NCBI GenBank assembly: GCA_965206595.1
Contig: OZ242214.1
Span: forward strand, 512,001 to 576,000
Direction of reading: 5' to 3'
From: Candidatus Latescibacterota bacterium
Lineage (GTDB): Bacteria; Latescibacterota; UBA2968; UBA8231
Length of the DNA stretch: 64,000 bases
The position numbers and the translations under genes are program-made. This document shows positions 474-63,295 of the stretch, piece after piece (within the stretch, counting starts at the first letter, position 1; each line of letters starts with the position of its first letter). The notes beneath the pieces were generated by a model that did not search any database, was not told where the DNA came from, and saw nothing but the letters and a program-made list of their open reading frames with translations.

Positions 474-1309
474 CAGGCATCTCTGTCAACGACATAGGCG
501 TCGTAGGTGTCCGTCAGGCTGACGCGCTGGCCTATGGCCTGCAGGCGCTCGATCCCCCCGTTAGCCGGTTCCTCCGTGAAGCCGAGCGGTTCCCACATGG
601 CACCGCAGTCCCGGACCATGATGACGGCCCGGCCGCCGGGGGCCAGCATCATGGGTATCTTGTCCACGTCCTTGGCGGACAGGAAGCCGTCATGGCCGTG
701 CAGGATGAGGATCTGGTCGTACGGATCCGTCGGGTACCAATGCCCGAATGAGCAGCAGTGGAGGCGGTCTGCGAAAAGCGGATTTCTGCTGGCGCACACG
801 CGGAGCATGTTTTCAGACCAGTCGATACCGCTGTAAAGCTGGGGCCGAATGTCCGGGTTGTTCCTGAGCAGCCAGCCGGTACCACATCCCACGTCGAGGA
901 TCCGCTGACCGGTCAGATCGCCCAACAGGGCCCCGAGGGGCTCGTCTCCGTGCCCGTTGGCCATGACCTGATCATACTGGTGGGCTACCTCGTCATAGGG
1001 CGTCTCGTAGCGCATCCGGGCGCGGTTCAGTATGGTCGTATCCTTCGGCGGCCACCCCATCGTCCAGTAGTAGTGGCCGTTGACCGTCAGGCTTTTGTAG
1101 TACTGGCGATTACCGTATCGGCGGCTGTAACCGAACTCCTGAACCAGCGTGGCTACTTCTTCGAAATCGTCTTCTGACCAGTTCACCCTGACGGTGTAGT
1201 AGTGCGGCTTTTCGGGCATCGTCTTGGCGAACCGGAAGGACGCTGATTTAGTCAGATCGGCTACCCGGAACAGTTGATCGTGAGTGATCCCCGGTTGGTT
1301 GTCGAACAT
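473..1309 (-). CDS. Class I SAM-dependent methyltransferase with an N-terminal domain of unknown function
   Basis: Motif I ILDVGCGTG and post-I GIDWSENML. The ~100-aa N-terminal domain contains FAKTMPEKPHYY. An AGGAG RBS lies upstream. Confidence 0.8.
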   Translation of the reverse strand: MFDNQPGITHDQLFRVADLTKSASFRFAKTMPEKPHYYTVRVNWSEDDFEEVATLVQEFGYSRRYGNRQYYKSLTVNGHYYWTMGWPPKDTTILNRARMRYETPYDEVAHQYDQVMANGHGDEPLGALLGDLTGQRILDVGCGTGWLLRNNPDIRPQLYSGIDWSENMLRVCASRNPLFADRLHCCSFGHWYPTDPYDQILILHGHDGFLSAKDVDKIPMMLAPGGRAVIMVRDCGAMWEPLGFTEEPANGGIERLQAIGQRVSLTDTYDAYVVDRDA

Positions 1310-1967
1310 GGCTGTTTTCTCCTTGAGCGTGAGGTGGTTCAGTCTCGTTCAAATTCTATGAGCTGGCTAAGTTATAGGCTGGCAACTGTGCTCGGGCAAT
1401 CTGAGCGGTAGGCATAGAGGTCTCGAAGATCTTCCATTCCGACTCTAAAATGGATCAGTCCGCCCCGGATGATGTCACTGACAGACGTGTCTACTCTGCA
1501 AGTGGGGCGGTGGAGATCAAGAAATTCCTCCTCACGAACGAGAAACTCAGAGTCTTCAACTTCATCCGGCTGCATGGTAGTATCCAAGCCATCCAACTTC
1601 CCGATACCCCCACCAGAACCACCATCACCAGATGGCACAGTCACGTCGATTGGACCGTGCGGCCTTCTGCCGGCGCTGGGGTGGCCTACATGCCGACAGA
1701 GTATGCAGGTGTCTGGATGTCCCAAGGCTGGCACGTCTCGATAAGCAGATTGAGATGGATTCGTTCTTTCGACTTCGGGGTTCTTTCCCCTCGGCTGGTC
1801 TTTTTCGTCTGGTTCTGAAAATCCCCGGTATCAAGTGATCTTTCTGGATGTCTCATGGCACTTCTGGTAGTTGTTTTCATGATGATAGCTGTCCACCCCC
1901 CAGGGTTTCGCCGTGGAAATTCCCGGTGGGGCTCTGAGGCTTTTTTATTCAACAGGATATTTTGGAT

Positions 1968-2429
1968 ATGAAACTGATAGCAGCTGTTATTATTCTCGCC
2001 GCCCCACTACAGGCAAGTGAGTGGAGCCTGGGCGTTGATCTTCCATTGGATCAGGGCGGGACGAGCTTATGGAATACCGGAGAAAAGTGGGGATACGGCA
2101 TTACTCTTGGCGGCCCCATTGTCAGCTTGGGGTGTTGCGATGACTCTAAGCTATACTATTCCTTGGGGTCCCTTACGGTACAGAGGTTCACGGGGAAGAT
2201 GTTTTGCTTTGGAGAAATAGGATACAAGATCCGAGGCCGGGATAGCCATTATGAAGCCAAAGGCGGCTTCATCAAAATGAGAGCCGGAGCTGGAATTTCC
2301 AGAAAGTATAAAGATTTTGGAGTCCTTATATCCTACGGGTTTGGATATGAGGGCTGGGATGGAGACGGCATTTACGAGAGAGTAGGACTGGACGCTTACC
2401 CGAGAGTAGTGGTTCATTGGACGCTGTGA
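1968..2429 (+). CDS. Small secreted protein, possibly outer-membrane beta-barrel-like
   Basis: Signal peptide MKLIAAVIILAAPLQA, alternating Gly/aromatic beta-strand pattern, C-terminal VVVHWTL. Confidence 0.55.
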   Translation: MKLIAAVIILAAPLQASEWSLGVDLPLDQGGTSLWNTGEKWGYGITLGGPIVSLGCCDDSKLYYSLGSLTVQRFTGKMFCFGEIGYKIRGRDSHYEAKGGFIKMRAGAGISRKYKDFGVLISYGFGYEGWDGDGIYERVGLDAYPRVVVHWTL

Positions 2430-2646
2430 GTAAGCCGCTGGACGGAGCCTTACAAGTCTTACTCTTTTTCTACGGCCTTTGAGGAATAAACTAACGGTTC
2501 AGTTTCATGCCACTTCTTTGATGATAAAGATGATTTATACCACACAGATCCGTCTTTGCATATTACAACAATCCCTACCCCTCCCTTTCCCTTGGATGAG
2601 TATGTGGCTATTCCTACAGGTTCCTTTTCAGCCGTCCGTTCATGAC

Positions 2647-2717
2647 GGTTCCCTTGGCTCTATCGTAGTAACTGCTTGCGAGGCAGTAGGTTATGGGTTC
2701 GAATCCCCATCAAACCA
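2647..2717 (+). pseudogene. Degenerate tRNA-like element
   Basis: Anticodon-like arm ACTGC-TTGCGAG-GCAGT, T-arm ATGGG-TTCGAATC-CCCAT and a 3' ACCA. The D-arm and acceptor stem are poor (only GGTT/AACC pairs). Confidence 0.45.
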
Positions 2718-2769
2718 TATTCCCATTTCCCATGTAAGCGTAAGACTTACGCCGGTCAATCAAGGCGAA

Positions 2770-2826
2770 AGGCCATAGGCCAGCCGTGTCAGCCTGACCG
2801 CAGCTATGACGCCTATGTCGTTGACA
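2770..2826 (+). repeat. Imperfect inverted copy (~57 bp) of 484-540, the 3' end of the methyltransferase gene
   Basis: aggccataggccagccgtgtcagcctgaccgcagctatgacgcctatgtcgttgaca aligns with the reverse complement of 484-540. Both translate as AIGQ...YDAYVVD. Confidence 0.85.
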
Positions 2827-2964
2827 CGGGTGAGTTATTTGCTAAATTCCATCCCTCAGCACTCTTGGTTACTCGCTTTTTTCCAGCACTACAACCCGGG
2901 CGATGATCGCCCCAGGAAAGGATTCCAATGGCTCTCAAGAAGCTCGGAAATAGCTACCTCGTAG

Positions 2965-4839
2965 GTGCCAACGACAGCGCACAGGCATTACCCGACGATA
3001 ACATCAATTACCGGAGGTTGGAAGGATTTTCTGGTGTGGGTTCCTTCATACAACTCCGATCAGCAGGCCGTGATTACCGGGTATTCCAACAAGCCGGACT
3101 CCTGGATAGATGCTTCCCTCTACCGTTGCAACAATCTCCTGGACGATCCAGGGACGTTTGTGGACGATGAATCCGTACGATCCACAATCCGGGAAGATGG
3201 GGGAGCGTCCATGACGTTTGAGTTTGGCCCGGCACCAGCTCGCCTTTCCGGGCTGTTCCGTCTCCGAATAAAGCCAAGAGACAATGATTCGATGTTCACG
3301 GTGGACTTTCAGAACCTTCCCTGGTATGCCATGGAGTGCTGGGAGCCGCGCAATAATTTCTACATCTTCGGTGTAGCCAGCCTCGCTCCCGTCAAACAAT
3401 ATTTCTTCATTCCAAGGCTGACCGAGGATGACGATTATGTTCGGGTGCGGTTGCAGACCGGGAATAACATCGAAAAAGCACAGATCGACATATACACGGA
3501 AACAGGGACAGATCCAATTGCTACGGCGAAATGCAAGGGAAAGGATGCGTCAGGAGGCGATCACCCTTGGTTCGACACGGCCCGGATAGAGGGAGACGAC
3601 CTTCCCTCAGGGTATCCAGGGGCTATCTATCGGTTCAAACTTACTAACCCTGTAAGTACTGGAAGGCAGCCGAGCGGGAATACCTGGGTGCGGTTTTCCA
3701 AGAACGTAGTTCCGTACTTTTCGGGTAGGGCCGAGCGGTTGATATACCCGATCCTTCATCAGAGAATCGATCCGGTTTCGTATGTCGATGAGTCTCGATC
3801 CCACCGGCTATACTTGACAGTTCCCCGGACCGTTCCTTCGGGAGAGACGGCCATTATCCCAGAAGCCAGTGAACTGAAGTTGAAAACAGGAACGTCGCCG
3901 GAATCGGACACGACAACGGGCTTTTCCGTTACCACAACGCTGACCTTGGATACTCCTCAGAAGATCGAAAGAGGAGATAATTTAATCGCGCAACTCCTGG
4001 ATGGGGATACGGTAGTCGCGGACAGCACCGACAAGGTCGATGCCCTTTACGGCATTCGGGAGCCCGTATACGACAGCGACTTCCCCGCAAAGATGACGGC
4101 TGTATGGGATAATGGGAACGGACGGACTACTTCTGGGGTATTGAAAGGTGGGCACGTCAACACAGTTCAGACGAGCAATGAAACCTCCATACCGCAGATC
4201 ATTGCACAGGAAGGACTGAAAGCCTGGGGCGCTCTGTACACACCTCCAGAGCAAAACAATCCTCCAATAAAGGCTTGGTTCAAGACAGAGGTCGGAGGAG
4301 AATACCCAAATGCAAACAGCGAGAATGTTCGCTTTTGGGGATACAAAGACGAGCCCGACAGCGGACCTGGGTATTACCGGGCTTCTGGAAACGTCTATCC
4401 GGTAACTGCCCTCAAGGACTTGTATGACGCTTTTCTATGCTATACGGGTTATACGAGTAAGCCCTTTCAAATCACCATCCAGCATACCATTTTCATTGAG
4501 GAATACAGCCGAGCATGCGACATTATCGGCAGCGATCCGTACGTCTGTGAAATTAAGAATTGGCCAAATGCCAATCGTGCACGGGACTGCGCAGCGGAGC
4601 TGACGTACAATAAAACTCCTCAACAAAAGCGGATGCTTATCATGTGGTGGTGGGACCCGAAGCTAGGGGTGGGAACAGCCGTTGGAGTATCCCTTTTCGG
4701 AGACGCATTCGCAGAATCGACGGGGATGGAGAGCATAGGAAGCTGGAACTTTTCGTCAGCAGGCGAGCAACTGAATAGTGTCGATCCTGCTCTATGGACA
4801 GAGATAACAAACAGAAACAACGGCTGGATCAATTCGTGA
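2965..4839 (+). CDS. Hypothetical protein with a C-terminal glycoside-hydrolase-like (TIM-barrel) region; true start may be 2928 via a frameshift
   Basis: 624-aa ORF. WGYKDEPD...DIIGSDPY resembles WELEDEPN...DIHSDDVYP of 44848-46110. The best RBS (AGGAAAGGA) precedes the out-of-frame ATG at 2928. Confidence 0.6.
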   Translation: MPTTAHRHYPTITSITGGWKDFLVWVPSYNSDQQAVITGYSNKPDSWIDASLYRCNNLLDDPGTFVDDESVRSTIREDGGASMTFEFGPAPARLSGLFRLRIKPRDNDSMFTVDFQNLPWYAMECWEPRNNFYIFGVASLAPVKQYFFIPRLTEDDDYVRVRLQTGNNIEKAQIDIYTETGTDPIATAKCKGKDASGGDHPWFDTARIEGDDLPSGYPGAIYRFKLTNPVSTGRQPSGNTWVRFSKNVVPYFSGRAERLIYPILHQRIDPVSYVDESRSHRLYLTVPRTVPSGETAIIPEASELKLKTGTSPESDTTTGFSVTTTLTLDTPQKIERGDNLIAQLLDGDTVVADSTDKVDALYGIREPVYDSDFPAKMTAVWDNGNGRTTSGVLKGGHVNTVQTSNETSIPQIIAQEGLKAWGALYTPPEQNNPPIKAWFKTEVGGEYPNANSENVRFWGYKDEPDSGPGYYRASGNVYPVTALKDLYDAFLCYTGYTSKPFQITIQHTIFIEEYSRACDIIGSDPYVCEIKNWPNANRARDCAAELTYNKTPQQKRMLIMWWWDPKLGVGTAVGVSLFGDAFAESTGMESIGSWNFSSAGEQLNSVDPALWTEITNRNNGWINS

Positions 4840-5963
4840 TTTCCCTCCTGTTCTTCCTGTTGCTGTCCCTTCCTGCCTGGGGGCAGCAATGGGAAGAAAT
4901 ATCCTCACCCTCCGGTTTGCACCTGTGGGATCTGGTCTTTGTGGACAACAGCGTTGGCTATGCGGCCGGCCCTAATCACGTAATAAAGACTGAAGACGGC
5001 GGTTATACCTGGGATCATATCCCCCTTTCGGGGATGGCTGAGGAAAAATATGGTGCTAGCATTTCGTTCATAAATCACCAGGAAGTAGTAGTTGGCCGTA
5101 ACGATTTAGGGCTATGGAAAACAGAGGATGGAGGAACCACCTGGAAAGTTTGGAACGATACCATTACCGGAATCTCTCGACGGCTTCATTTGGATAGCTC
5201 CGGAAGTGGATGGTATCTTGTCGAGAAACAACTGTGGCGGACAACAAGAGGAGAGGAATGGGTTCTAAACTCTCTGGAATTGCCTCCTGATTTTGCAGGA
5301 GGACGCCAATTGGGAAGAGATTGGGAGTGCTGCTTCAGTAACAATTTTCGGGATATGTATTGGTTCGACCGCGATTATGGAATTGTCGTAGGGGGATACG
5401 GCGAAGACCGAAAGCAAGCTGATCTTTATGATATGGGAAGAATGCATACGACTTACGATGGCGGTAAATCATGGAAAGAATGGGAAATCACCAGAGTTCT
5501 GGCTGCAGTACTGGGTGGAATAATTGTCGGGCCGAATCCTGAGAAAATATGGATTGTTGGTTCTGGAGAGCAATTATACATTGGTCATGCTATGTCGTGG
5601 AATATAATGTTACCTCGGGGGGGTCCAGATTACGAAAAGTTCAGACCTACTAGCTCCATGAGTGGCGGGGCTCCACATCTTAACTGGTGGTTTAGCACTG
5701 GGTTCATACTGGACGAACAAACAGGCTGGATTGCCGGTACACGAATTATGCGTACTGAGGATGGGGGAGAAACCTGGACCGTAGAATACGGCCCTGGCGA
5801 TGAATTAAACCCTGAATGGATACTTCGCATGGTGAGGGTGGATAACCGATTGATAGCCGTAGGATGGCGCGGCAGGATTTTAATGCGAGAAATCGGAGGT
5901 TCTTCGACAGGCATATCCCCTGCTTCCTGGGGAACTCTGAAGAGAGAGATTGCCGATGACTAA
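4836..5963 (+). CDS. Secreted YCF48/BNR-repeat beta-propeller protein with a C-terminal SWGxxK tail
   Basis: GTGA overlap with the upstream stop, signal peptide, repeated KTEDGGxTW motifs, ends SSTGISPASWGTLKREIADD. Confidence 0.8.
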   Translation: MISLLFFLLLSLPAWGQQWEEISSPSGLHLWDLVFVDNSVGYAAGPNHVIKTEDGGYTWDHIPLSGMAEEKYGASISFINHQEVVVGRNDLGLWKTEDGGTTWKVWNDTITGISRRLHLDSSGSGWYLVEKQLWRTTRGEEWVLNSLELPPDFAGGRQLGRDWECCFSNNFRDMYWFDRDYGIVVGGYGEDRKQADLYDMGRMHTTYDGGKSWKEWEITRVLAAVLGGIIVGPNPEKIWIVGSGEQLYIGHAMSWNIMLPRGGPDYEKFRPTSSMSGGAPHLNWWFSTGFILDEQTGWIAGTRIMRTEDGGETWTVEYGPGDELNPEWILRMVRVDNRLIAVGWRGRILMREIGGSSTGISPASWGTLKREIADD

Positions 5964-5986
5964 GGTTCGGAACAGGCCAAAAAAAT

Positions 5987-6688
5987 ATGGAGATTATATA
6001 CAATCTCTACGTGGCCTTCGTGTCCAGCGACGACGTGTACAAGAACGATCACGACTACGATGCAATTCGGGGATCTCTTAGAGATTTCATAGATGTCAAT
6101 GACAGCATCACTTTGGCCATCGATGGAGATCACAGCGGGGGCAAGGGCTGTCCCTACAATTGCCAGATGGAGGATTTGCGGGAGGTCCGCAGCAGGAATC
6201 AGCGCTATGAGGCCATCGCGCGCACCGTCAGCGGCTCCACCCTGGATGATATCTCTACCAGATATATAACGGAAAAGATCGCCTGGACGGTCCTGCCTCC
6301 CTACGGGCAGGGAGGCGGCGGCGTAGCAGGGGAAGCCCCGGTGATCAGCGTGATCGAGTTCTACGTCACCCCGTTCGACCGCTTTTCGTTCGATGATCCC
6401 GAGGGGAGCGTGGCCAGCGATCTGGCCGCGGGCCAGGTCATCGGCTTTGCTATCATGGTCAACGACTGGGATAGTTTTGATAGGGCTGATGATATGGAGG
6501 TTAATTCGTACTGGGTACCCGAAGCCATGAATCGCGGTGATGCCGACGACAGGCAGCATGAGATAGATGCCGGTTGGGCGGATTTCTTCCTCGACGGCAT
6601 CTTGCTGCCGGCCGGCGCCGAACCGGAAGGCACCGCGGTCGAGTCGGTCTCCTGGGGGCGAATCAAAGCCTCCCTGGAGTTGGAGTAG
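5987..6688 (+). pseudogene. N-terminally truncated member of the secreted VESVSWGRIKASLE beta-sandwich (CBM9/DOMON-like) family
   Basis: Homology to 11115-12116 and 12189-13160 begins abruptly at LYVAF (~6006). The signal peptide and first ~100 aa are missing. Confidence 0.75.
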
Positions 6689-6849
6689 CCGCCATCCCCC
6701 CTTCGCCCGCGGTTCACTTGTGCCCGACGAATTCCTCGCCACCTGACCTGGACCGACCTGTGACTGGATCATCCTGCAAACTGACGATCGGCCTGTCCCT
6801 TTTTTCGCTCCTCTGGCAGTTGTCCAATCCCGACGCCGCCCATACCCGG

Positions 6850-7104
6850 AACGAGAGCGTCTTTCTCATGGCCCGGGACGGGTCCTCCATCCAGCGCCTG
6901 TCCGCGACCGAGGGCCGGTCCGCCCCGGGCTGGGGCCCGGACGGCCGGGCCTTCGTTTCCAACCGGGACGGGTTGACCTCCATTTATCGCATGGCCTCCG
7001 ACGGCACCGGCGTCACCCGGCTGACTACGGGGCACGACGGAGACTGGAAGCCGGCCTGGGCACCTGACGGCGAAAGCCTCTGTTTCGTCTCCAGCCGCAG
7101 GTAA
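6850..7104 (+). pseudogene. TolB/PD40-repeat protein fragment
   Basis: AFVSNRDG...IYRMASDGTGVTRLT...PAWAPDGESLCFVSSR; no credible start, ends prematurely. Confidence 0.6.
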
Positions 7105-7168
7105 CCCGTACCTTGAGGAGCGGTGCCGCCGGGTCCTGCGGGTAGGGCCGCCAAGACCGCTTCTGCTT

Positions 7169-10100
7169 CTATGGTTTTTTCAGCTTGTAGACCCGCATTC
7201 GGGAACGCAGCCGCTCCGGATTCATGCCCAACAAGGCAGCCGCGCCCCTCTTCCCGGAGATGACCCAATTGGTTGCCTTCAGGGCTTCCAGGATTTGCTG
7301 TTCTTCGGACTTGAAGACCGGGCCGGCTTCGTTCTCATCCCCCTGATCGACCGGCGGGGCAGACGCCGGCGGCGAAGATCCGCCTTCGTACAGGTCTTCA
7401 TCCGGAAGCACATCCTCCAGGTCCACGACGTGACTCCGGCACACGATCACCGCCCGCTGCATCACGTGCTCCAGCTCGCGCACGTTCCCCGGCCAGGAAT
7501 GCTCCTGCAAGTGCCTCGACGCCTCGGGACTGAGAACCGGCACCGGCTGCCGCAACTTCCGGGAAAACCGGTTCGCGAAGTAGGCCGCCAGGAACGGGAT
7601 TTCCTCGCGGCGGTTCCGCAGGGGCGGAATTTCTATCGGGAACACGTTCAAGCGGTAGAACAGGTCCTTCCGGAACCCTTGGTCCATGGCCTCCTTCAAA
7701 TCCCGGTTGGTCGCCGCAACCACCCGGACATCCACCGGGACGGGGGTTTCCCCGCCGACGCGGAAAAGGTGTCGATCCTCCAGAACGTGGAGCAGAACCC
7801 TTTGGGCCTCCACAGGCAGGTCCCCGATTTCATCGAGGAACAGGGTGCCCCCGTGCGCCTGTTCGAAGCGGCCTGTCTTCCGTTCTACCGCGTTGGTAAA
7901 GGCGCCCTTTTCATGGCCGAACAGTTCGCTTTCCACCAGCCCGGGGGGCAGGCCCCCGCAATTGACCTCGACAAAGGGGCGCTTCCGCCGCCGGCTCACG
8001 GCGTGAATGTGCTGCGCGAGCACCCCCTTGCCCACCCCGGTCTCGCCCAGGATCAGCACCATCGCATCGGTCCCGGCCACCTGTCCGGCCAGCTCCAGGA
8101 CCCGGGCCATGGCCGGACTGTTTCTGAGCATGTCCTGCTGCGAGATCCACGGCATGTGCTTCAGTGCCTGGACGGGTGCGCTTTCCTCCTCCGCGACCAC
8201 CTGCACCTCCAGGCTGACCGCGTCCGACATCAGGCCGTCGCGGTCCCGGGTGCGCACCTCGAAGCGGAACCGGCCTTCCGGCAGACCGGAGAACGAGACC
8301 GAATCGGCGGAGGTGAATTCGCTCCAGGCTTCCGCCGGGCCATGACCCACGAGCCGGTGGCTGTAGCGCATCTGATCCGCCCCGGTTCGGAAACTGATGC
8401 CTTGAAAGTCGATTCGAAGCTCGCGGGTGCCTGCCGGAAAGGACACGGCCCGGGGGGCCTCGATGAGACGCCCGGCCTCGACCTCGCGGATCACCAGGGC
8501 CGGAGGGGTGCGGTTTGCCTGGTACTCGATGAGCCCCGCCCGCGTCCCGAACCACAGCCGGCCGTCGCTGGCGCGCAGGATGTCCTCGACCACGTTCTCG
8601 AGGCTGGCGTTCCCCAGGCGAAGGGTCTGGAAAGCATGCCCGTCGTACTTCATCACGCCCCCCCCCGCTCGTGCCGACCCACAGGCAGTCCTGCTCCGGG
8701 TCGGCCAGCAGGGAGAGAATGCCGTTTACCGACAAGTCCCCCTGGTCCACGGTAAACCGGCGAACTTGCCCGGCGGTGAAATCAAGGAAGAACAGGCCGC
8801 TGTTGGTTTGTGCCCACCCAGAGCCTGTCTTCGTGCTCGCACAGGGCAGTCACTTGAGATACGGCCTCCAACCCGGCCATGGCCGGCGGCTGCAAGCGGC
8901 CGTCCTCGTACCGGTACAGCGCCGGGGCGGGCCCCCCGGTGCCGATCCAGAAGGCGCCGTCCCGGGCCGGCAGCACGGCGCGGCACTCGTGGGGCAGCCC
9001 TTCTGCCAACGGGTTGAACCGGTCGGCTTCCAACCACCCAAGGCGCCCCAGGGAGGTGCCGGCCCATACACGCCCGCGGCCGTCCGCGCACAGGGCCGTG
9101 ACCTCTTCCCCGGAGCCGGTTTCGGCCACCTCGATCGCTCGGGATTCCTTTCCCGTCCATTTGAATACCTTGCCCTCGGGGCCACCCCAGACCGGCTCCG
9201 GCCCGTCCGCCTCCAGCGCCGAGACTACATGCCCGGTCTCCACCGTACGGATGCGGTCGTCTTCCCGGCAGGCCAGACCCCCCATGGTGCCGATCCACAG
9301 CCGCCCCGTCCCGTCTTCGTCCAGGCACCGGACCTCGTTGTCCGGCAGACCGTCGGCTTCCGTGTACAATTGCACGCTGACCGGATCGCAGAAGAGCAGC
9401 CCCCCGCCCCACAGTCCGATCCAGATGTTGCCCTCGCGGTCCTCGCAGGTCAGCCGCGTGTCCGAGAAATGGGTGCCCTGCAAGCGGGCCGAAAACGGAT
9501 GCCAGGCCTGCCCGTCGTACACCAGAACCCCCCGGCGAGCCATCCACAGCCAGCCCCTGTCGTCCTGGCGCACATGCCGCGTGCCGTGCTGGACGACTTC
9601 ACCGCTTTCGACCTCATGGTCCACCTCGATCAGGTCGAGCTGTTGGCGCTCGGGATCGTAGCGGCCGATAACGGCTTCGCTGCCGACGTAGCGGAAGCCG
9701 ATCCACAGACCGCCGGAGGCGTCCGGGGCGAACTTCCAGGGCCACTGCATGGCGGTTTCCCCGGTGCCCAGGTGCCCGTTCATGGGCTGACCTTCCAGAT
9801 CGATGATCCCCCGCTCCCGCGACGCCAGCCAGGTAGTACCCCCCGCGTCGGTGGCCATGTCGTACACCGCACCGAGGGGTTGGTCAGCAAGGTCGGTCAC
9901 AGACTCCAGGCACCGCCCCTCGACAAAGCGGGCGATCCCGTTCCCGGTCAGCACCTGTACCGAGCCGTCCGCCTGGGGGTGCAGGCTCAATATGTCGTTG
10001 GAGGGCAGTCCGTCCGCGGTGGTGTACACCTGAAACCCCTGCCCGTCGAAGGCGGCCAGACCGCCCCCGAGAGTCCCGAACAGCAGGCGCCCGTCCTCGT

Positions 10101-10297
10101 CCTCGGCAATGGTCATCGCGTTGAGGTGGGGAAGCCCGTTCGAGGGGCCGAAGGTCTCGAACCGGGCCCCGTCGAAGCGGCTGACCCCGCCGTCGGCGGT
10201 GGCCACCCACAGGAGCCCCCGGCGGTCCTGGTATATGTCTTCCACGTGCATCCACGTGCATCAGCCCGCCGTTCCGGGAGCCGGAAGGAGGGGTCAC
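7169..10297 (-). pseudogene. Reg_prop beta-propeller + Y_Y_Y + sigma-54 AAA+ activator + HTH fusion, broken by three frameshifts
   Basis: Propeller repeats (EDxxGxLWxGT) in 8782-10251. Y_Y_Y-like segment, then GETGVGKG, ESELFGHEKGAFTNA, LFLDEIG, WPGNVREL and an HTH in 7169-8656. Lesions: 10-bp tandem duplication at 10241-10260, +1 shift at ~8805, C9 run at 8658-8666. Confidence 0.85.
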
Positions 10298-10600
10298 GGG
10301 GTTGGGGACCTTGGCTCATTTTCATTTTCGACTTCGTTCTCTTTTGGGGAAGCAAGGAGGTGGGGATCGCTGATCGATGGCGGTACCTGCATAAGATGAA
10401 AGGAAGCGGGAAGCAAACGGTTCCGGCCCGCCCGCTCGGGGAAATCGTGAAGTTGTATTTAATACAACGAGACTCGGGGGAAGCCGATGGCGACAAGGAC
10501 GGGCCGAAGGCGGAAAAAAATAAAATGTGCTTCTATAAGCCCGAAGATAAACAACAGGTTATGTCCAACAGGAACAAATTGATGGAGCCGCGGCCATGTA

Positions 10601-10617
10601 CAGGCACCCCTTTTGCT
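10601..10617 (+). promoter_or_regulatory. Sigma-54 (-24/-12) promoter
   Basis: CAGGCACCCCTTTTGCT has exact GG-N10-GC spacing and fits TGGCAC-N5-TTGCW. An IHF-like site AAACAA-CAGG-TTA lies at 10549-10561 and a palindrome GTTGTATT-T-AATACAAC at 10452-10468. It is divergent from a sigma-54 activator gene. Confidence 0.75.
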
Positions 10618-10677
10618 TTTTCTCTGGGTGAACCGGGGTAGCGAACAGACGCGACCCCAAAAACAAAGGAGGCCGCA

Positions 10678-10929
10678 ATGAGAAATCGGTTGAAGCAGAG
10701 CATGAAGGCCGTCCTCGCCATCCTGGCGGGCGCCCTGCTGACCACCGGAGGTTTGTCCTGGGTGGAGGCCGACTCGCAGGCCGGTTGGCACCACGACCAC
10801 ACCGTGTACGCCTTCACGAACAGCGAGGCGAACGGAAAATGCAGCTATAGCTGCTCCCAGGCTGGGCATTCCAAGTACGATGCTACCAACATCGGCCCGG
10901 GGACTTGGTTGTGCGAGTGCAAGGACTGA
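10678..10929 (+). CDS. Small secreted cysteine-containing peptide (CxxxC...CxC)
   Basis: AAGGAGG RBS, Sec-type signal ending VEA, 52-aa mature part with four Cys, and its own promoter and terminator. Confidence 0.75.
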   Translation: MRNRLKQSMKAVLAILAGALLTTGGLSWVEADSQAGWHHDHTVYAFTNSEANGKCSYSCSQAGHSKYDATNIGPGTWLCECKD

Positions 10930-10964
10930 GCATCCTGCGGCGCTTTCGCTGACGAGGCACTCAC

Positions 10965-11012
10965 GGACGAGGGTTCCGTCCCCTTCAGGGGGTGGGCCCT
11001 CGTCCTTATTCT
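10965..11012 (+). terminator. Probable intrinsic terminator
   Basis: Hairpin GGACGAGGG...CCCC-TTCA-GGGG...CCCTCGTCC followed by TTATTCT. Confidence 0.6.
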
Positions 11013-11114
11013 TCCTGAAGAGGAGGCCCTGTACCCGTTCAGGATTCAGAAAATCGAAAGGGAACGGGGAAAGCCCTGTCGAGCCCATGTCGGGCGACCA
11101 GAAGGAGGAGACAG

Positions 11115-12116
11115 ATGGTCCCTGTGTGCATCCGGAATCAGTGGAGCATGGCCCTCGGCCTGCTCGTCGGCTCGGCCCTGTGGGCCGGCCTGCCTGCCCG
11201 GGCAGAAGCCCACGTCGGCAGTCGAGTCTTCCCTGTCCCCGAGCTGACCGACGAGATGCTGGAACAGATTCAGCTCGACGGCTATGTGTACGAAGAGTGG
11301 TTCGATCAGATCGGCGAACCTGCCCTGACCTCGGTGGATTTCCTGAATACCGGGAAAGAACCACATGATCCGGCCGACCTGGACTTCCGCATCTGGCTGG
11401 CCTGGCACGATGAGCCGGCTCGCCTCTATGTGGCCTTCGTGGCTGCCGATGACAGTTACTGGAATACTTTTAGCTGGGAGGGGTCTGGTACCCCAGGAAA
11501 CATGATGGCCGGTTATCGAGGTGGTAACGACGGCATTGCCCTTGGAGTCGACGGAGATCACAGCGGTGGTCCCGGGTTTGCAGGATGGATGGGGCGGGAT
11601 AGAATCGCGGAGAGTAGGGGGAATGCGCAGGCATATCATGCCATTTCCCGCACTCCTGATGGACCGATCCTGGATGACCCGAAGTCCAGACACGTGGGTG
11701 GGGTCTCCTCCTGGATGACCCTGCCCCCCTACGCGGAGGCCGCCGGCGCCGTAGTCGGGGAAGCGCCCGTCTTCTGGTCGATCGAGCTGTACGTCACGCC
11801 GTTCGACCACAGGGAAGACCTGATCAGTCCCGAGGGGTCCGTGGTGAGCGATCTGAGCGCGGGACAGATCATCGGCTTCGCGATTGGCGTGTACGAGAAT
11901 GACGCGGGGGATCCTCATGAGCAGTTGGCGGTGTTGGCACCGGAAGCGCATGCCACGGGTTCCGATAGTGAAATTCTCGACGACGTAATTAATTCTGTCG
12001 CCGACAACTTCCTCGATGGGCTGCTGCTGCCGGCCAACGCGGCCGGACCGGTGGAAAACAGCGCCGTCGAGTCGGTTTCCTGGGGGCGGATCAAGGCCTC
12101 CCTGGAGATGGAGTAG
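11115..12116 (+). CDS. Secreted CBM9/DOMON-like beta-sandwich protein with SWGRIK tail (paralog A)
   Basis: AGGAGGAG RBS, signal peptide ending ARAEA, conserved blocks DLDFRIWLAWHD, DGDHSGG, ELYVTPFD, ends VESVSWGRIKASLEME. The fold assignment is inferred. Confidence 0.8.
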   Translation: MVPVCIRNQWSMALGLLVGSALWAGLPARAEAHVGSRVFPVPELTDEMLEQIQLDGYVYEEWFDQIGEPALTSVDFLNTGKEPHDPADLDFRIWLAWHDEPARLYVAFVAADDSYWNTFSWEGSGTPGNMMAGYRGGNDGIALGVDGDHSGGPGFAGWMGRDRIAESRGNAQAYHAISRTPDGPILDDPKSRHVGGVSSWMTLPPYAEAAGAVVGEAPVFWSIELYVTPFDHREDLISPEGSVVSDLSAGQIIGFAIGVYENDAGDPHEQLAVLAPEAHATGSDSEILDDVINSVADNFLDGLLLPANAAGPVENSAVESVSWGRIKASLEME

Positions 12117-12188
12117 TCCGCGTACGGCGTCACCCTGCGGGCGCCTTCCCTGTCGAGCCCATGTCGGGCGACCAGAAGGAGGAGACAG

Positions 12189-13160
12189 ATGGTCCCTGTG
12201 TGCATCCGGAATCAGTGGAGTTTTGCCCTCGGCCTGCTCGTCGGGTCGGCCCTGTGGGCTGGCCTGTCTGCCCGGGCAGAAGCCCATGTCGGCGGTCGAG
12301 TCTTCCCGATCCCCGAGCTGACCGACGAGATGCTGGAACAGATCCAGCTCGACGACGGTTCGGTGGCCGAGTGGTTCGATCTCGTGGACGAACCCACCAT
12401 GTCCCTGGTGGATTTCAGATGGTACGGCCATATACCTGACCCCTCTGACCTGGACTTCCGCATCTGGCTGGCTTGGCACGATGAGCCGGATCGGCTCTAT
12501 GTCGCGTTCACGGCCAGCGACGACGCGCACCTCATATATGATGGAGATACTGAATACTATTTGGGCGAACCCGAACTTATCCTGGCTATCGACGGAGATC
12601 ACAGCGGCGGGGGGAGTGGTTTGGAATCCTGGGAAGCAGGGGATTATTGGGGGAACGCGCAGCAATACGGGGCAATTGCCCGTACGGCCGACGGCCGCAC
12701 TGCGTTGTTCGGCCATTTAAAGACCGGCTTGAGTGGCGGGTACACGACAACTAACAGGTATGATTCCTGGATGTTCTTTCCTCCCTACGGAGACGCAGGC
12801 GGTGACGTCGTCTGGGGAAACCCGATCATCAGGGTAATCGAGCTGTACGTCACTCCATACGACGGTTGGCAGGGAATCGACAGTCGGCCTGAAGACGTCG
12901 TGGTCAGCGATCTGACCGCAGGAGAGGTCATCGGCTTTGCGATCCTCGTGGGCGAAAGAGATGACGAATACAGCCGGGGCACCTTGACGCCTGAAGCAGT
13001 CCAGACGGAAGACCCGGAACTGGACATACTGTCCCATTACCGGGCGGATGTCTACCTGGACGGGCTGCTGCTGCCGGCCACCGCGGCCGGACCGGTGGAA
13101 GACAGCGCGGTCGAGTCGGTTTCCTGGGGGCGGATCAAGGCTTCGCTGGAGTTCGAATAG
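12189..13160 (+). CDS. Secreted CBM9/DOMON-like beta-sandwich protein with SWGRIK tail (paralog B, tandem duplicate)
   Basis: The upstream ~40 bp, 5' end and 3' end are near-identical to paralog A, with the same conserved blocks. Confidence 0.8.
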   Translation: MVPVCIRNQWSFALGLLVGSALWAGLSARAEAHVGGRVFPIPELTDEMLEQIQLDDGSVAEWFDLVDEPTMSLVDFRWYGHIPDPSDLDFRIWLAWHDEPDRLYVAFTASDDAHLIYDGDTEYYLGEPELILAIDGDHSGGGSGLESWEAGDYWGNAQQYGAIARTADGRTALFGHLKTGLSGGYTTTNRYDSWMFFPPYGDAGGDVVWGNPIIRVIELYVTPYDGWQGIDSRPEDVVVSDLTAGEVIGFAILVGERDDEYSRGTLTPEAVQTEDPELDILSHYRADVYLDGLLLPATAAGPVEDSAVESVSWGRIKASLEFE

Positions 13161-13404
13161 CCGTACCGCCATCCCCTTCGTCCGCGGTTCATTTGTGCCC
13201 GACGAATTCTTCAGCCGCGGAACCAATCGCCCAACTCTCCATCGACGACGAATGGCTCGATAACCCGATCATCCTGCCCCAGGGCCAAGTCTGGGGCAGG
13301 CCCCAAGACCACGACGCCTGTCAGGAACAGCTCTTCCTCCCCGCCTGGCGCCGCGCTGCCGTCGACGGCCGGGTCTGCTTCGGGGCCGGACCGCGCCCGT
13401 ACGT

Positions 13405-14958
13405 TCACGAGCCCGGCGAGTCGACGAACTGGAACGCGTACAGCTTGCAGTCGCGCATGACGAAGCGGATCCGGACCGGTTTTCCCGATAACGCGCCGAC
13501 ATCCTCGCTTTTCCCCCAGCGCACCGGCATGCGCACCGAGTTGCCGCAGATCCAGGATGCATCCTCCTCCGTGTAGCCGCTGAGCGGCCGGCCCTCCGCA
13601 TCCTGAAGCTCCACGCGCACGGCGCCGCCCCCTCCGGTGTCGAGGTTCAGCTCCAGACGCTGGCCCTCGAAGCGGACAACCGGCGTGACGATTTCGCCGC
13701 CGCCGTAGCCCGCATCCGCCGATACGAACCCGTCCAAGCGAAGAATGGCGCGGCCGATGCCGGAAAGGTGGCCCTTGCCCGCCGGGTCGAGGAGGCCGTC
13801 GTGGTCCCGGTTGGTGCCGCTGAAGTAGATCCAGATTTCGTCACCCATCCGCACCGGATGCGGCATGCCCCAGATCATGCGTGAGGAGAAACTGCCTTCC
13901 GGCCCCGGGCTCAGGAAGGGCCGGCGTCCGCCGCAGCGCTGGAAGTTCACTCCGTCGCGGCTCACCGACAGACGCACGTCGAAGCGGCTTGGGCCGTGGA
14001 TCTGCTGCGTCTCGGTGCGCACGACATCCAGGTCGTCGCGGACTGTGGTCACCACCGGCTCGCGGTTGAACCAGTACCAATTGGCGTTGGCGAACATGAC
14101 GTACACGCCGTCGGGGTCCGGGTACTTGAACACGGCGGCGCCGTAGTAGTCCATCGGCACCCTGCCGTAGGGTTTTTCCGGCGCCGTGGGATCCAGCGGG
14201 GGGCCGGTCTCGTATGTCGCCAGGTCTACCTCGTCCGGCCACATGACCGTCTTCTGGTTGTCCCAGTTGACGAGATCGTCGGACTCGAGCCTTCTGACCG
14301 TCCGGTAGTTCTCGTTTCCCTGAGCGGTGGTGTGGCGTTTTGCGACCCAGCGGCGGGTGTAGAGGACGTAGCGACCGATGGCCGGATCCCGGAAAATGAT
14401 GCTCTGCGTATCCCAGCCGCCCCGGTGCGGGAGCTGTATGCGGCGAAGGAATTTCCAGTGGATGCCGTCCGGCGAGCCGTGCATGTGGAACTGCATCGCC
14501 ACTTCGGGATTGTAGACCTTCGACTGGTTCTTGTAGCGCTCTTCCGCCGGGGCATTGGGGTCGATCCAGACCGAGCTGCCGCCGAGCTTGCTCGGGAGGA
14601 CGATGTTGTTGACGGTCGACCCGCCCTCGTCGATGAGGTTCAACTCCGGCTTGTGGAAGTGGATGCCGTCCGTCGATTCGGCATAGCCGACGTAGGCCTG
14701 GTCGAGGCTGAGCTCGGAATCCTCCCTGGCCCTGCGCACGTGGTACCACATCCGGACGCGGCCGTCATCTTCTCCCAACACGCTGCTGTAGATGCCGAAG
14801 CTCGTGTCGGACGGGTCCTCCCACGGGGCGTCGACGGTCACCACCGGCTCCGGGGCCTGGTAGGGTGGATTCATCGCCAGCTCCACTCCGTTGCCGGTGG
14901 CGATGAAGCGGTCGTCGACGAAAAGCTGCTTGCTCGATCCGATATCTATCGGCTTCAT
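13405..14958 (-). CDS. GH32/GH43-like five-bladed propeller hypothetical protein
   Basis: QLFVDD start, YAESTDGIHFHKPEL, WDTQ, LRLDGFVS; paralogous to 24750-26309 and 26403-27851. Confidence 0.75.
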   Translation of the reverse strand: MKPIDIGSSKQLFVDDRFIATGNGVELAMNPPYQAPEPVVTVDAPWEDPSDTSFGIYSSVLGEDDGRVRMWYHVRRAREDSELSLDQAYVGYAESTDGIHFHKPELNLIDEGGSTVNNIVLPSKLGGSSVWIDPNAPAEERYKNQSKVYNPEVAMQFHMHGSPDGIHWKFLRRIQLPHRGGWDTQSIIFRDPAIGRYVLYTRRWVAKRHTTAQGNENYRTVRRLESDDLVNWDNQKTVMWPDEVDLATYETGPPLDPTAPEKPYGRVPMDYYGAAVFKYPDPDGVYVMFANANWYWFNREPVVTTVRDDLDVVRTETQQIHGPSRFDVRLSVSRDGVNFQRCGGRRPFLSPGPEGSFSSRMIWGMPHPVRMGDEIWIYFSGTNRDHDGLLDPAGKGHLSGIGRAILRLDGFVSADAGYGGGEIVTPVVRFEGQRLELNLDTGGGGAVRVELQDAEGRPLSGYTEEDASWICGNSVRMPVRWGKSEDVGALSGKPVRIRFVMRDCKLYAFQFVDSPGS

Positions 14959-15078
14959 GATGCCCTCGTTGCAGACCCGCGGTTTGCGCCCTCCCGCGGG
15001 TTTCGCCCGCGCGCGGTTTGTCTATCATTGACGGTTTGCAATCGGGGGCGAATCTATGAGAGCTGAACCAATACACCT

Positions 15079-16230
15079 ATGAACCATTCCGTGTTGTACC
15101 GGGACGACGCCCGGTATTCCAGCTTCCCGACCGTGGTAAAGGGAGACCGCGACGAGCTCTGGGTCGGTTTCCACTGGAACTCCCACACGCCGCTGGGGCG
15201 CGGCGTCGAAGGTGCGGCGCACTCTCATTCAGGCGGTCTGGCGGGAGGCGCGACCGGTCACGTGGAGCTGTTCTCTCCGGACGGCGGGGACAACTGGTTC
15301 GAGGAGGGGAAGGACGGCCGCTACCGCGAATGCCCGGAGGCGCTGAGAAGCGCCGTGCTGAGCGACGGCACCCAGGTAAGGATCTCCAGGCCCGTCAACG
15401 CGTACCCGCCCGGGCGCAGGGAGGAGTTCGCGCGGCGAGGTTTTGCGGTTGAGGATTTTCCCGAACGCATCCACGTGGAGCACAGCCTGCGGATGTCGCG
15501 CAAGCGGCCGGGAGAAAGCGGTTGGGAACACCGCCTGCTCAGGAGCGGCGAAGAGCTGCCGTTCTTCGCCCTGGTCCGCAACGGGACCGACCTGAAGAGC
15601 TGCGTTCTCGCCGACGATACCATCGTAAACCAGGTGTACGGCAGCGCCGCGGCAGGCGATCCGTTCCGGGCCTGGGTGCTGCGCTCCGAAGACGGCGGCG
15701 ACACCTGGGAGATGGTGACGATGGCGTACGACGGCGGCGAGCATCCGTTCAACGAGAGCAGCCTCCTGGCGCTGCCGGGCGGACGCATCGTGGCGATGGT
15801 GCGCACGGCAAGCGGCAGCAAACGCATTCCTCATGAAGAGAAGTACCTGTTCCGGACGCACTCGGACGATGGCGGCAGAACCTGGAGCGAGATCAGAAAT
15901 ACCGGATTGTGGGGGTATCCTCCGCACCTGCTGCTGCTGAGCAGCGGCGACGTCCTCTGCAGCTACGGGTACCGGCGGGCTCCGTACGGGGTGCGGGCCT
16001 GCCTGTCCCGCGACGGCTGCGAAACGTGGGAAATTGCGGACGAGATCGTGTTGCGCGACGACGGTCTCACCACCGACGGGAGGGAGGCGGGGAAGGGAAC
16101 ATCCGCTGACCTGGGTTATCCGCGAACAGTCGAGCTTTCGGACGGGTCGCTGTTCACCGTGTACTACATGACCCTCGGCGACAGCGTAACTCACGTGGCG
16201 GCTACCCGGTGGGCCCTGCATCTGGCGTAG
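15079..16230 (+). CDS. BNR/Asp-box sialidase-like protein
   Basis: Asp-boxes SPDGGDNW, SEDGGDTW, SDDGGRTW, SRDGCETW; also YSSFP and DLGYP. Confidence 0.8.
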   Translation: MNHSVLYRDDARYSSFPTVVKGDRDELWVGFHWNSHTPLGRGVEGAAHSHSGGLAGGATGHVELFSPDGGDNWFEEGKDGRYRECPEALRSAVLSDGTQVRISRPVNAYPPGRREEFARRGFAVEDFPERIHVEHSLRMSRKRPGESGWEHRLLRSGEELPFFALVRNGTDLKSCVLADDTIVNQVYGSAAAGDPFRAWVLRSEDGGDTWEMVTMAYDGGEHPFNESSLLALPGGRIVAMVRTASGSKRIPHEEKYLFRTHSDDGGRTWSEIRNTGLWGYPPHLLLLSSGDVLCSYGYRRAPYGVRACLSRDGCETWEIADEIVLRDDGLTTDGREAGKGTSADLGYPRTVELSDGSLFTVYYMTLGDSVTHVAATRWALHLA

Positions 16231-60709: not shown

Positions 60710-61697
60710 CTACAGCTCCTCAACTCCTACAAATCTGCCCGTGCCACGACTTCTGACGGCCGCCTCCACCAGCGCCAGAGTGTGGATCGCATCGGCATAT
60801 TCCGAGCGGACCAGCGACCGTTCGCCTGTTTCTATAGCGCGCAACCAGGCACCGGTCTTATCCATGCCCAGGCTGTTCTCTTCAGGCACCGATTTGTCCA
60901 ACTCCTGTCCATTGAGGTACCCAGTAATCCGGTTTTGGGTCACGTTTGCGCGAAGACGCAGGTGAGGGCCGATAACCTCGAGATCAAAGCTGAACCCTTC
61001 AGTGCCACAGTGATTGGTATGTGTGCCCAAGACACCGTTGTCAAGCGCGTAAGTCATCTGGATGGCATTCTCGGCGTCGAATTCGGAGCGGTCGTGTGCC
61101 ATGTTTTTGACTGCCAGCGCATGTGCCTGAACCGGTTTGGGATTGCCCAGGACGAAACGTCCACAATCGAGCAGGTGGATGGCCTGCTCGGCTATAGGCC
61201 CTCCGCTGATCTTCTGTTGCAGGAACCAAGGCGCCATCTTAAAGCTCAGATAGTAATTGACTGTACAGACGGTCTGCATCAGATGGACTGTCTCATTGGC
61301 CAGCAGATGTTTCAGCCTCTCGTAGAGCGGTGCGTAACGCAATTGAAAACCAACGGCGGCAATTACCCCGGCTTTTTCGATTTGCTCCAGACAGTCCCGT
61401 CCCTCGTCCATGTTCAGCGCAGGGGGCTTTTCGATCATCAGATGGATACCCCGTTCACAAGCCATTCGCACCGGTTGAAGGCGTACCGGAGGAGGCGCAG
61501 TGATAACTACGCCATCGATTTCGTGCTCGAAAAACGGGTCGAGTTCATCAGTGGCGATCTCTGCACCGCTTGCCGTCGCCAGCTGTTGTGCGGCATCCAG
61601 GCGAGTGCTGTGAACCGCGACGACCTGCGCTCCATAAGCAGCAACGGCTCGCCCATGCGCACGTCCCATGTTGCCGGCACCAACAATTCCGATCTTT
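60710..61697 (-). CDS. Gfo/Idh/MocA oxidoreductase whose native start was removed by ISL3
   Basis: KIGIVGAGNMG begins directly at the IS end; IEKPP, VGFQLRY, EQAIHLLD. Confidence 0.8.
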
Positions 61698-62918
61698 GGC
61701 TCGTCAGTAGAATTCGTGGGTGAATTGTGGCTCGGGTAAATCGCCAAGCTGATGGAATGAAGCGATTTGGAGTGCCTTGAAGGTGCGGCATCCGAATGCT
61801 TTTCTCCCTGTCAGATTCCATTTCAGGTTCAAGCCCTCGACCATGCCGTTGTTGAACTGCTTCCTGGCCCTGAACCAATTGAGGATGAGCTCTTGGTGAC
61901 GCCGCAGCATTCCGGCGATGTCTTTCATCGGTTCGATGTTGCTTCTCATCGTACGGAAACACCCGCGCTGGAGGAACTTCTCAGCCCACGCGGAGTAGGT
62001 GTAGTCCCAGAAGCGCTGGAAGTCCTCCTTGAGCAGGTAGGCTCTGACCGTCCGCAGGTTCATCTTCAATAGCTCCGACAGCTTCAAGCCTTGGGAGTCG
62101 CTTCTGGTCGAGGAAACGGGTCGGCTCCTGCTCGCCGCCGGCTTCCTGCTTGCGCCGGTGCTCCTGCTCCCGTTCGGTAAAGCCGTCGTTCAAGGCCTTC
62201 TTCGTCCGCTTCTCGCCCATCCACAACAGGCGGCGGCGGTGGGGGTCGATCTGGTACAGCAACGTCAGATAATGAGGCCCCTTACGATACTGGATTTCAT
62301 CCACGCCGAGGGCCGTGACCTGGTCGAGGCAGCGATGAGCGAGCCCATAGTCCACGACGTACTGGACGGAGTGGTAGACCTTGTCCCAACGGGTCCGGAA
62401 GGAACGCGCCACCTCGATCCACGACAGTTTTTTGGCCCCCTGGGCCAGGAAGCAGCGGTAGAGGTCGGTCAGGTGGTGCTTGCCCGTGCTCCAGGGGACC
62501 TTCTCGACGACCACCCGGCCGCAGGCTTTGCAGGCAACCCGGCGCATGCGATACACCAGAAAGACCGGAAACCCCCAGAGGGGAACAAACTCGAACAGCC
62601 GGGCCTCGGGGGCCGTGTCATAGGTGGGGGCCAAGTGACCGCAGCCGCTGCACGCGCCCCGGGAGTTTTTCCGTGGCCTTATCCTCACCATTATCCTTCC
62701 GTGCCGGTCAAAATGACTGCCCTCAAACACAAACCGCTTGAAGGTCGTGCACCGGTTTAGTACCGTGATCAGGCGCATCATTCCCTCCACAGGTAGTTGG
62801 GTTCCGTCTTGGTGGACTGTCCCAACATACCGGGGGATGATGCGCCTGGGCTACCTGGCCTCCTCTATTCCCATCGCCGCAGCCTCCCCTCCTCACCCAC
62901 AGATTCTCCAGAGGAGCC
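61698..62918 (-). mobile_element. ISL3-family IS with an internally deleted/frameshifted transposase
   Basis: Imperfect 26-bp IRs GGCTCCTCTGGAGAATCTGTGGGTGA / GGCTCGTCAGTAGAATTCGTGGGTGA. CSGC...CKAC zinc finger, LGVDEI, NGMVEGLN. Break near 62100. Confidence 0.9.
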
Positions 62919-63295
62919 ATAAAATCTAGTCCCCAAGACTCGGCATTGTAATCGTGGTCGTTCTTGTATATGTCGTCGCTGGCAACGTAGGCCACGTAGA
63001 AACGGGCCGGATCGTCGTGCCAGGCCAGCCAGATGCGGAAGTCGAGGTCGGACGGATCAGGAGAAATCCCCGGATCCAGGCTTGTGAAATCCAGCATGGT
63101 CATGGACGGCTCGCCGATCAGCTCTTGCCATTCCTCCACCGAGCCGTCCTTGAGATCGATCCGTTCCAGCATCTCGTCGCTGATATAGTGGATCGGGTAC
63201 AAGCGGTCGCCGATGTGGGCGTCTGCCGAGACAACCAGCCACAGAACGAGCCCCAGGGCGGCGCAACACTGCTTCCTGCTTCCGACAGAAGTCAT
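62919..63295 (-). pseudogene. N-terminal part of a fourth secreted beta-sandwich paralog, truncated by ISL3
   Basis: AGGAGG RBS, signal peptide, DLDFRIWLAWHDDPARFYVAY. Confidence 0.8.

Follow-up and report, generated by a model that had tools for sequence, protein, structure and literature searches.

The 64,000-nucleotide window analysed here (positions 512,001–576,000 of contig OZ242214.1, assembly GCA_965206595.1) comes from a Candidatus Latescibacterota bacterium and carries four homologous copies, A to D, of a gene family that would encode exported proteins with a conserved scaffold and variable loops. An initial annotation of the DNA had picked out all four as look-alike copies, and a tblastn search of the genome with copy B bears out their homology (C, E 5e-89; A, 5e-46; D, 2e-28), but only B and C are intact, A and D being fragments. 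Copy B (11115–12116, plus strand) encodes 333 residues comprising a predicted signal peptide, a body of predicted CBM9 fold and the tail SWGRIKASLEME, and copy C (12189–13160, plus strand; 323 residues) follows it in tandem after a gap of 72 nt. Copy A (5987–6688, plus strand) is 5′-truncated, its homology beginning at 6004, equivalent to family residue ∼100, and covering positions 99–324 of the family hidden Markov model (HMM); by open reading frame (ORF) and alignment it has no signal peptide, and it is probably a pseudogene. Copy D (62944–63295, minus strand) retains the signal peptide and the N-terminal ∼117 residues, the 3′ part having been lost at an ISL3-family insertion sequence (IS) element (61695–62918, minus strand; transposase in two ORFs) that truncates it. 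The possibility that A and D are halves of one gene was rejected, as they overlap by ∼20 codons at 86% identity and have different closest paralogues. Copy A is a duplicate, 87% identical, of genome positions 6478571–6479522, and the duplication extends ∼260 nt past the stop codon, the co-duplicated flank (6689–6948, plus strand) being 87% identical to 6479250–6479522. The first ∼45 nt of this flank are common to the 3′ flank of C (13166–13210, plus strand), so the shared flank reported initially (6689–6735 and 13166–13210) is real; its 28-nt core occurs at only these two genome sites at up to five mismatches.

No Pfam family matches the four window copies at E≤1, NCBIfam yielded no match either, and a sequence profile search of the PDB returned nothing significant (best E 0.19). 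An AlphaFold2 model of B, calculated on a 100-sequence alignment, has a predicted local distance difference test score (pLDDT) of 79 and a predicted template modelling score (pTM) of 0.80; its quality is poor in the signal peptide and over the 23 C-terminal residues. Foldseek matched the model to the CBM9 module 7nwo (E 8e-8), and VIA-align gave Z-scores of 19.0, 18.6 and 17.6 for 7nwn and 7nwo from Caldicellulosiruptor kristjanssonii and 1i82 from Thermotoga maritima Xyn10A, respectively, with 185–189 of the 189–195 residues, in effect the whole module, superposed at an rmsd of 2.5–2.7 Å. Since the aligned residues span positions 37–308 of the model, the CBM9 core would be complete and ∼85 residues would be extra loop material. 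In the predicted model the body is a CBM9-type (DOMON-superfamily) β-sandwich, the likeness being one of overall fold at 11–15% sequence identity. The same superfold gave weaker matches to the putative carbohydrate-binding protein BACUNI_03838 (4jpq, Z 15.2), to the haem-b DOMON subunits NxrC (7b04) and ethylbenzene dehydrogenase gamma (2ivf), both at Z 11.1, and to cellobiose dehydrogenase cytochrome domains (Z 5.2–5.7). CBM9 modules bind their ligand in a slot with an aromatic clamp and also have calcium sites (1i82, with cellobiose, and 7nwo, with glucose). Instead of forming part of a glycoside hydrolase, members of the family are free-standing proteins, each with a signal peptide; they also have a conserved C-terminal tail and occur as tens of paralogues per genome. 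BACUNI_03838, NxrC and ethylbenzene dehydrogenase gamma are likewise stand-alone or subunit-type exported proteins.

The N-terminus of the family proteins is hydrophobic and, in 98 of 114 sequences, leads through a small-x-small motif (AxA in 58) into H.G.R, from which Sec export is inferred. As the His directly follows the predicted signal-peptidase site, the mature protein would begin with it; in B it is residue 33 (11211–11213), and in one divergent subfamily it is replaced by Gln. Two further histidines are conserved, H98 being nearly invariant and H149 invariant. At the other end, the short tail (SWGRIKASLE) is also nearly invariant, and the near-invariant blocks quoted in the initial annotation are present in the protein alignment of the window copies. 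In the genome, 71 ORFs terminate in the tail motif [ST]WGx[ILVM]K, and 11 of these have no match to the family HMM; the motif thus seems to be a C-terminal tag that the organism's exported proteins carry more generally. Examples of such ORFs lie at 689124–690791, 4998578–4999675 and 874814–876805 of the genome (G000), and one 664-residue ORF matches the family HMM in the tail only.

The four window copies belong to a large family. The 7.05 Mb genome contains 93 family loci by tblastn, and 108 ORF pieces match an HMM built from relatives; the family accounts for ∼1% of the genome. Full-length copies number 48, many in tandem arrays (for example, eight at 6974848–6983808), and the remaining pieces are truncated, frameshifted or distantly related. 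The family is present in 85 of 168 genomes of the phylum and in 68 of the 75 of the window's own taxonomic family, and a search of 1.84 billion representative proteins returned 929 matches at E≤0.001, 292 of them at E≤1e-30. Among the relatives listed in the protein searches most are ∼290–340 residues long, and none of the 120 listed has a precomputed Pfam domain. From the public genome collection 56 loci were fetched: 35 from the Latescibacterota metagenome-assembled genome (MAG) CBDETY01, 16 from CBDCXV01, one from each of three further Latescibacterota MAGs and two from a MAG labelled Aminicenantes. Full-text searching of the literature found no description of the family; the matching passages of a paper on sponge-associated Latescibacterota (PMC12993501) list classes of eukaryotic-like proteins and carbohydrate-active enzymes (CAZymes) and do not mention it.

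Divergence along these genes is strongly uneven. With residues classed by the secondary structure of the model, and not by their variability, Nei-Gojobori estimates of dN/dS (ω) on 34 independent close pairs, every sequence being used once, were 0.35 for strands, 0.42 for helices, 0.46 for coil, 0.32 for the tail and 0.70 for the signal peptide. In the 19 closest pairs the differences sharpen, with ω 0.10 in the core strands (residues 89–112) and 0.23 in the tail, rising to 0.75 in loop 1 (113–139) and 0.79 in loop 5 (262–271) and reaching 0.46–0.60 in the other loops. The contrast between framework and loops is therefore real and about seven-fold. When dN is set against the gene-wide dS, the ratio is 0.98 for loop 1 and 0.99 for loop 5, and in 9 of the 19 pairs the dN of loop 1 is above the gene-wide dS. 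In the pooled pairwise estimates ω stayed below 1 for every structural class, loop and 10-residue window, the highest 10-residue window lying at 0.71. Loops 1 and 5 thus evolve at an approximately neutral rate, and these estimates do not demonstrate positive selection. Of the idea that a binding scaffold had been diversified by strong selection or by recombination between framework anchors, the conserved scaffold, the variable loops and the recombination at conserved anchors are supported; strong positive selection is not (pooled ω≤0.79).

Loop 1 is nonetheless a recurrent hot spot; in B it occupies residues 119–139 (11469–11531, plus strand), and the second fast loop, loop 5, residues 262–271 (11898–11927, plus strand). 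Taken more broadly, the hot-spot loops of B cover residues 113–139, 151–171, 178–206 and 262–299. Of 18 usable pairs, 7 showed significant clustering of amino-acid differences (≤5 of 1000 permutations), and the most different 15-residue window began in loop 1 in 7 of the 18. The nineteenth pair, which includes A, was dropped because the missing N-terminus of A counts as indels; its columns were kept in the pooled rates of the window analysis, which makes the enrichment conservative. Relatives from other assemblies that are 67–88% identical differ mainly in the signal peptide, loop 1, loop 2 and residues 276–300, and their loop 1 shows indels and falls into discrete types. The loops are also AT-richer, as the initial annotation had noticed: across the 48 full-length copies, the four variable loops have a GC content at third codon positions (GC3) of 0.586 and the framework one of 0.704, the corresponding values in copy B being 0.65 and 0.79. 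As dS too is lower in the framework than in the loops, the lower dS and higher GC3 of the framework would fit more frequent conversion of the conserved blocks.

Direct traces of such exchange are found between B and C, which must be the pair that the initial annotation meant as almost identical in upstream flank and termini. The two genes share 44 identical nucleotides upstream, including an AGGAGG ribosome-binding site, and are 91–94% identical over the first ∼45 codons and 93–95% over the last ∼40, the loop windows between being 33–60% identical with peaks at the framework blocks. The 5′ conversion tract, comprising the 44-nt leader and ∼55 codons, extends over 11071–11280 in B and 12145–12354 in C (both plus strand). 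Over residues 1–32, B and C are 94% identical to each other, compared with 81% (B) and 80% (C) to their own orthologues, while over residues 63–333 the relationship is reversed, with B and C 53–91% identical (53% over residues 111–300) and each 90–99% identical to its own orthologue. Synonymous codons are identical at 33 of 38 positions in the N-terminus versus 36 of 70 in the middle (Fisher p 0.0003). The pattern extends to tandem neighbours in general: in 32 adjacent pairs the termini are more alike than in non-adjacent pairs of equal body identity. At body identities of 0.55–0.65, 0.65–0.75 and 0.75–0.90, signal peptide identity in adjacent versus non-adjacent pairs is 0.68 vs 0.47, 0.71 vs 0.56 and 0.75 vs 0.64, and tail identity 0.87 vs 0.73, 0.82 vs 0.76 and 0.93 vs 0.84, respectively. 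The pairwise homoplasy index (PHI) is significant in close subclades, the observed value being reached in 0 of 500 permutations in three of them and in 5 of 500 in a fourth. Mosaicism, which the initial annotation had offered as a test of its proposal, is thus present, as is the uneven divergence.

Comparison with a sister genome shows that the B-C locus is itself a recombinant. The activator side of the locus and B match the sister-genome locus L001. The body of C is 96% identical, and the gene downstream 91% identical, to L002, located 2.6 Mb from L001; the leader of C resembles the L001 copy. Window 9000–15309 joins the left part of one cassette locus (L001) to the right part of another (L002), and L001 seems to be without the small peptide gene described below, window 10667–11071 corresponding to only ∼59 nt there.

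On the upstream side of B, and divergent from it, lie two ORFs on the minus strand that resemble a sensor and its regulator. The first (8782–10251) encodes a Reg_prop propeller sensor, whose propeller domain continues into the second (7169–8656), which encodes the last propeller blade, a Y_Y_Y domain, a Sigma54_activat AAA+ domain (E 7e-66) and HTH_8. Between these ORFs and B is a plus-strand gene for an 83-residue Cys-rich peptide with a signal-peptide-like N-terminus (10678–10929), which has no Pfam match, and 62 nt 5′ of it a sigma-54-like −24/−12 element, AGGCAC-N5-TTGC (AGGCACcccttTTGC; 10602–10616, plus strand). By sequence, the B locus therefore has the two marks of a sigma-54 regulon, a −24/−12 promoter-like site and an adjacent AAA+ activator. 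The cassette of activator, peptide and family genes is present three times in the genome, the activator region being 97% and 86% identical to its paralogues, and a sigma-54-like site lies within 700 nt upstream of 10 of 65 family gene starts, compared with an expected 0.012 per gene.

Taken together, these observations make it likely that the family is a lineage-specific birth-and-death repertoire of secreted CBM9-fold binding modules, partly under sigma-54 control. Its members would be Sec-exported, stand-alone proteins of ∼320 residues, built from the sandwich body, the ∼85 loop residues and the tail. Birth proceeds by tandem and segmental duplication and death by truncation, through IS elements and other DNA, and by frameshift decay, with recombination between copies as a further step, and examples of each can be seen in the genome. 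Recombination acts chiefly where copies are still alike, at both ends of the gene (leader with signal peptide, and tail) and in the framework blocks; being confined mainly to like segments, it keeps the termini of neighbours alike while the loop-bearing bodies differ and drift near-neutrally. The proteins would act in binding, their most probable ligands being glycans or other molecules on surfaces, their many bodies forming a hard-wired repertoire of specificities, part of which may be switched on by sigma-54 activators with propeller sensors, and the tail may serve as a sorting or docking tag. The family would be a new and large variant, peculiar to its lineage, of the CBM9/DOMON fold family, in which genes turn over by birth and death while their termini evolve in concert. 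It would show how a classical carbohydrate-binding fold can become a free-standing scaffold, duplicated on a massive scale, in which the loops change fast and the ends recombine. Should its members bind different ligands, the family would be a natural library of CBM9-based binders and a handle on how the uncultivated Latescibacterota interact with their surroundings.

Several observations weigh against this interpretation. All 100 members scanned fall below the threshold of Pfam CBM9_1 (PF06452); weak matches to it occur in 7 of the 100, with a best E of 0.033, and are more frequent than those to any other Pfam family. In 23 deeply diverged, saturated main-clade copies PHI is not significant (114/300), so that pervasive shuffling of old copies is not shown, and no donor for the loop-1 patch of B considered below was found in the genome or the fetched loci. 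In addition, the overall ω of 0.32–0.46 and the many fragments would also fit a weakly constrained family. Taken to its conclusion, the last point suggests a repeated, recombination-prone family of little function, spreading and decaying near-neutrally, whose loops vary for want of constraint; loops 1 and 5 do change at the synonymous rate, and truncated or frameshifted ORF pieces and IS hits are numerous. We consider this very unlikely given the low ω of the core strands and tail, the full-length open frames kept in 48 copies, the retention of the family in nearly all genomes of its taxonomic family (68 of 75), and the dedicated sigma-54 cassettes that were duplicated along with it. In another alternative the proteins are metal- or haem-binding DOMON-type redox proteins or metallochaperones that bind no glycan and use the first mature residue as a ligand. 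Copper can be bound by an N-terminal His in a ‘histidine brace’, and the conserved His at the mature N-terminus of the family could be a metal ligand; H98 and H149, together with the structural matches to haem-b subunits and cytochrome domains, point the same way. CBM9 modules match far better (Z 17.6–19.0) than the haem proteins, however, Gln takes the place of the His in the divergent subfamily, and a redox cofactor site has no obvious need for >50 variable-loop paralogues, and we regard this function as unlikely. In a further difference from the DOMON haem-b subunits, neither B nor C was seen to have a gene for a partner oxidoreductase next to it.

The loops themselves prompted the suggestion of an antibody-like repertoire. 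In one alternative the copies serve programmed diversification, either by a diversity-generating retroelement (DGR) rewriting the loops or by pilin- or Vls-type variation with fragments such as A and D as donors. Gene conversion does occur here, dozens of ORF pieces cover the family model only in part, and the discrete loop-1 types of relatives are what such a process might leave. The most striking case is B itself, in which a sharply bounded patch at residues 120–137 differs from the sister-genome orthologue at pN 0.48 and pS 0.48 amid near-identical flanks (pS 0.02–0.11). The differences in the patch, however, affect all bases and include indels, rather than following the adenine-restricted pattern of DGR targets, which the family otherwise resembles in its localised hypervariable segment on a predicted binding scaffold. 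Neither a donor nor a template for the patch was found in the genome or the 56 fetched loci: a second copy of the patch or its flanks, as a template repeat would provide, was not found, and the search gave only self-matches and one 26-nt, 88% match between two B-like copies. The linked reverse transcriptase that the initial annotation proposed to look for is not near any of the 93 loci, the only two RVT_1 matches in the genome (6113267 and 2642807) lying far from them. Surface or secreted multigene families such as Neisseria opa and Borrelia vls/erp evolve by duplication and gene conversion, and the family shares with them conserved termini, variable middles, conversion between copies and fragments beside intact genes. 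In contrast to these systems, there is no evident arrangement of silent cassettes around one site of expression, and the conversion tracts found homogenise the termini rather than diversify the loops; the organism, moreover, is an uncultivated Latescibacterota bacterium and not a pathogen facing adaptive immunity. The intact copies are unlikely to be silent cassettes, since each of the 48 has its own start codon and signal peptide, and transfer of sequence from fragments to intact copies was not observed. Programmed diversification is therefore extremely unlikely, the antibody analogy is left without a mechanism, and the evidence gives no support for a new mechanism of diversification.

A bolder form of the birth-and-death repertoire is one in which >50 CBM9-fold binders per genome constitute a germline-encoded recognition repertoire, with specificity set by a few hot-spot loops, loop 1 in particular. 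Diversifying selection would renew these loops, as would the exchange of whole bodies and of loop segments between paralogues and between strains at the framework anchors, and sensor-coupled sigma-54 switches would deploy the binders. This proposal is unlikely, but if true it would represent a bacterial counterpart of innate receptor repertoires, directed at varied host, prey or phage surfaces.

In public sequencing data, parts of the window are matched in 20 run rows belonging to 14 studies, and some of the runs bear a sponge or coral metagenome label. The run contigs are short and broken at the multi-copy conserved blocks, with depth peaks at 11328–11418, 12056–12146 and 13057–13147, and joints within them may stem from other paralogues or organisms; parts of B are uncovered in run X4. 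Run X20, an RNA library with a sponge-metagenome label, gave 42 contigs, none of them ≥99% alike, and is uninformative on transcription.

Some features of the cassette and its surroundings are of additional interest. The Cys-rich peptide has tblastn matches of 72% to 35% identity near four other family loci, at distances of 394–582 nt (genome 6970119, 6978096, 6984383 and 5625207). The same split of the propeller over two ORFs is seen in all three paralogous cassettes, and it may reflect two genes, an old double frameshift or a homopolymer assembly error. A C9 run (8658–8666; G9 on the coding strand) lies 2 nt 5′ of the start of the activator ORF, and a single shift there would not join the propeller and activator frames. 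Aligned with genome 6973789–6970675, window 7139–10253 has an identical propeller ORF (489 of 489 residues), a 91% identical AAA+ ORF and a 72% identical peptide, which suggests recent conversion within an older segmental duplication. To the left of copy A, window 1001–6000 has a GC content of 0.47–0.53, compared with ∼0.6–0.7 in most other 1-kb windows, and holds a 624-residue ORF without any family match (2965–4839) and a gene for a BNR/Ycf48-like secreted protein (4794–5963); its right border is the truncation point of copy A. At the other end of the window, the ISL3-family element that truncates D is present in the genome in at least four full-length and at least nine partial copies at 95–100% identity, and the 698 nt to its left (61000–61697) are 98% identical to genome 3722374–3723071, which hints at an IS-associated rearrangement.

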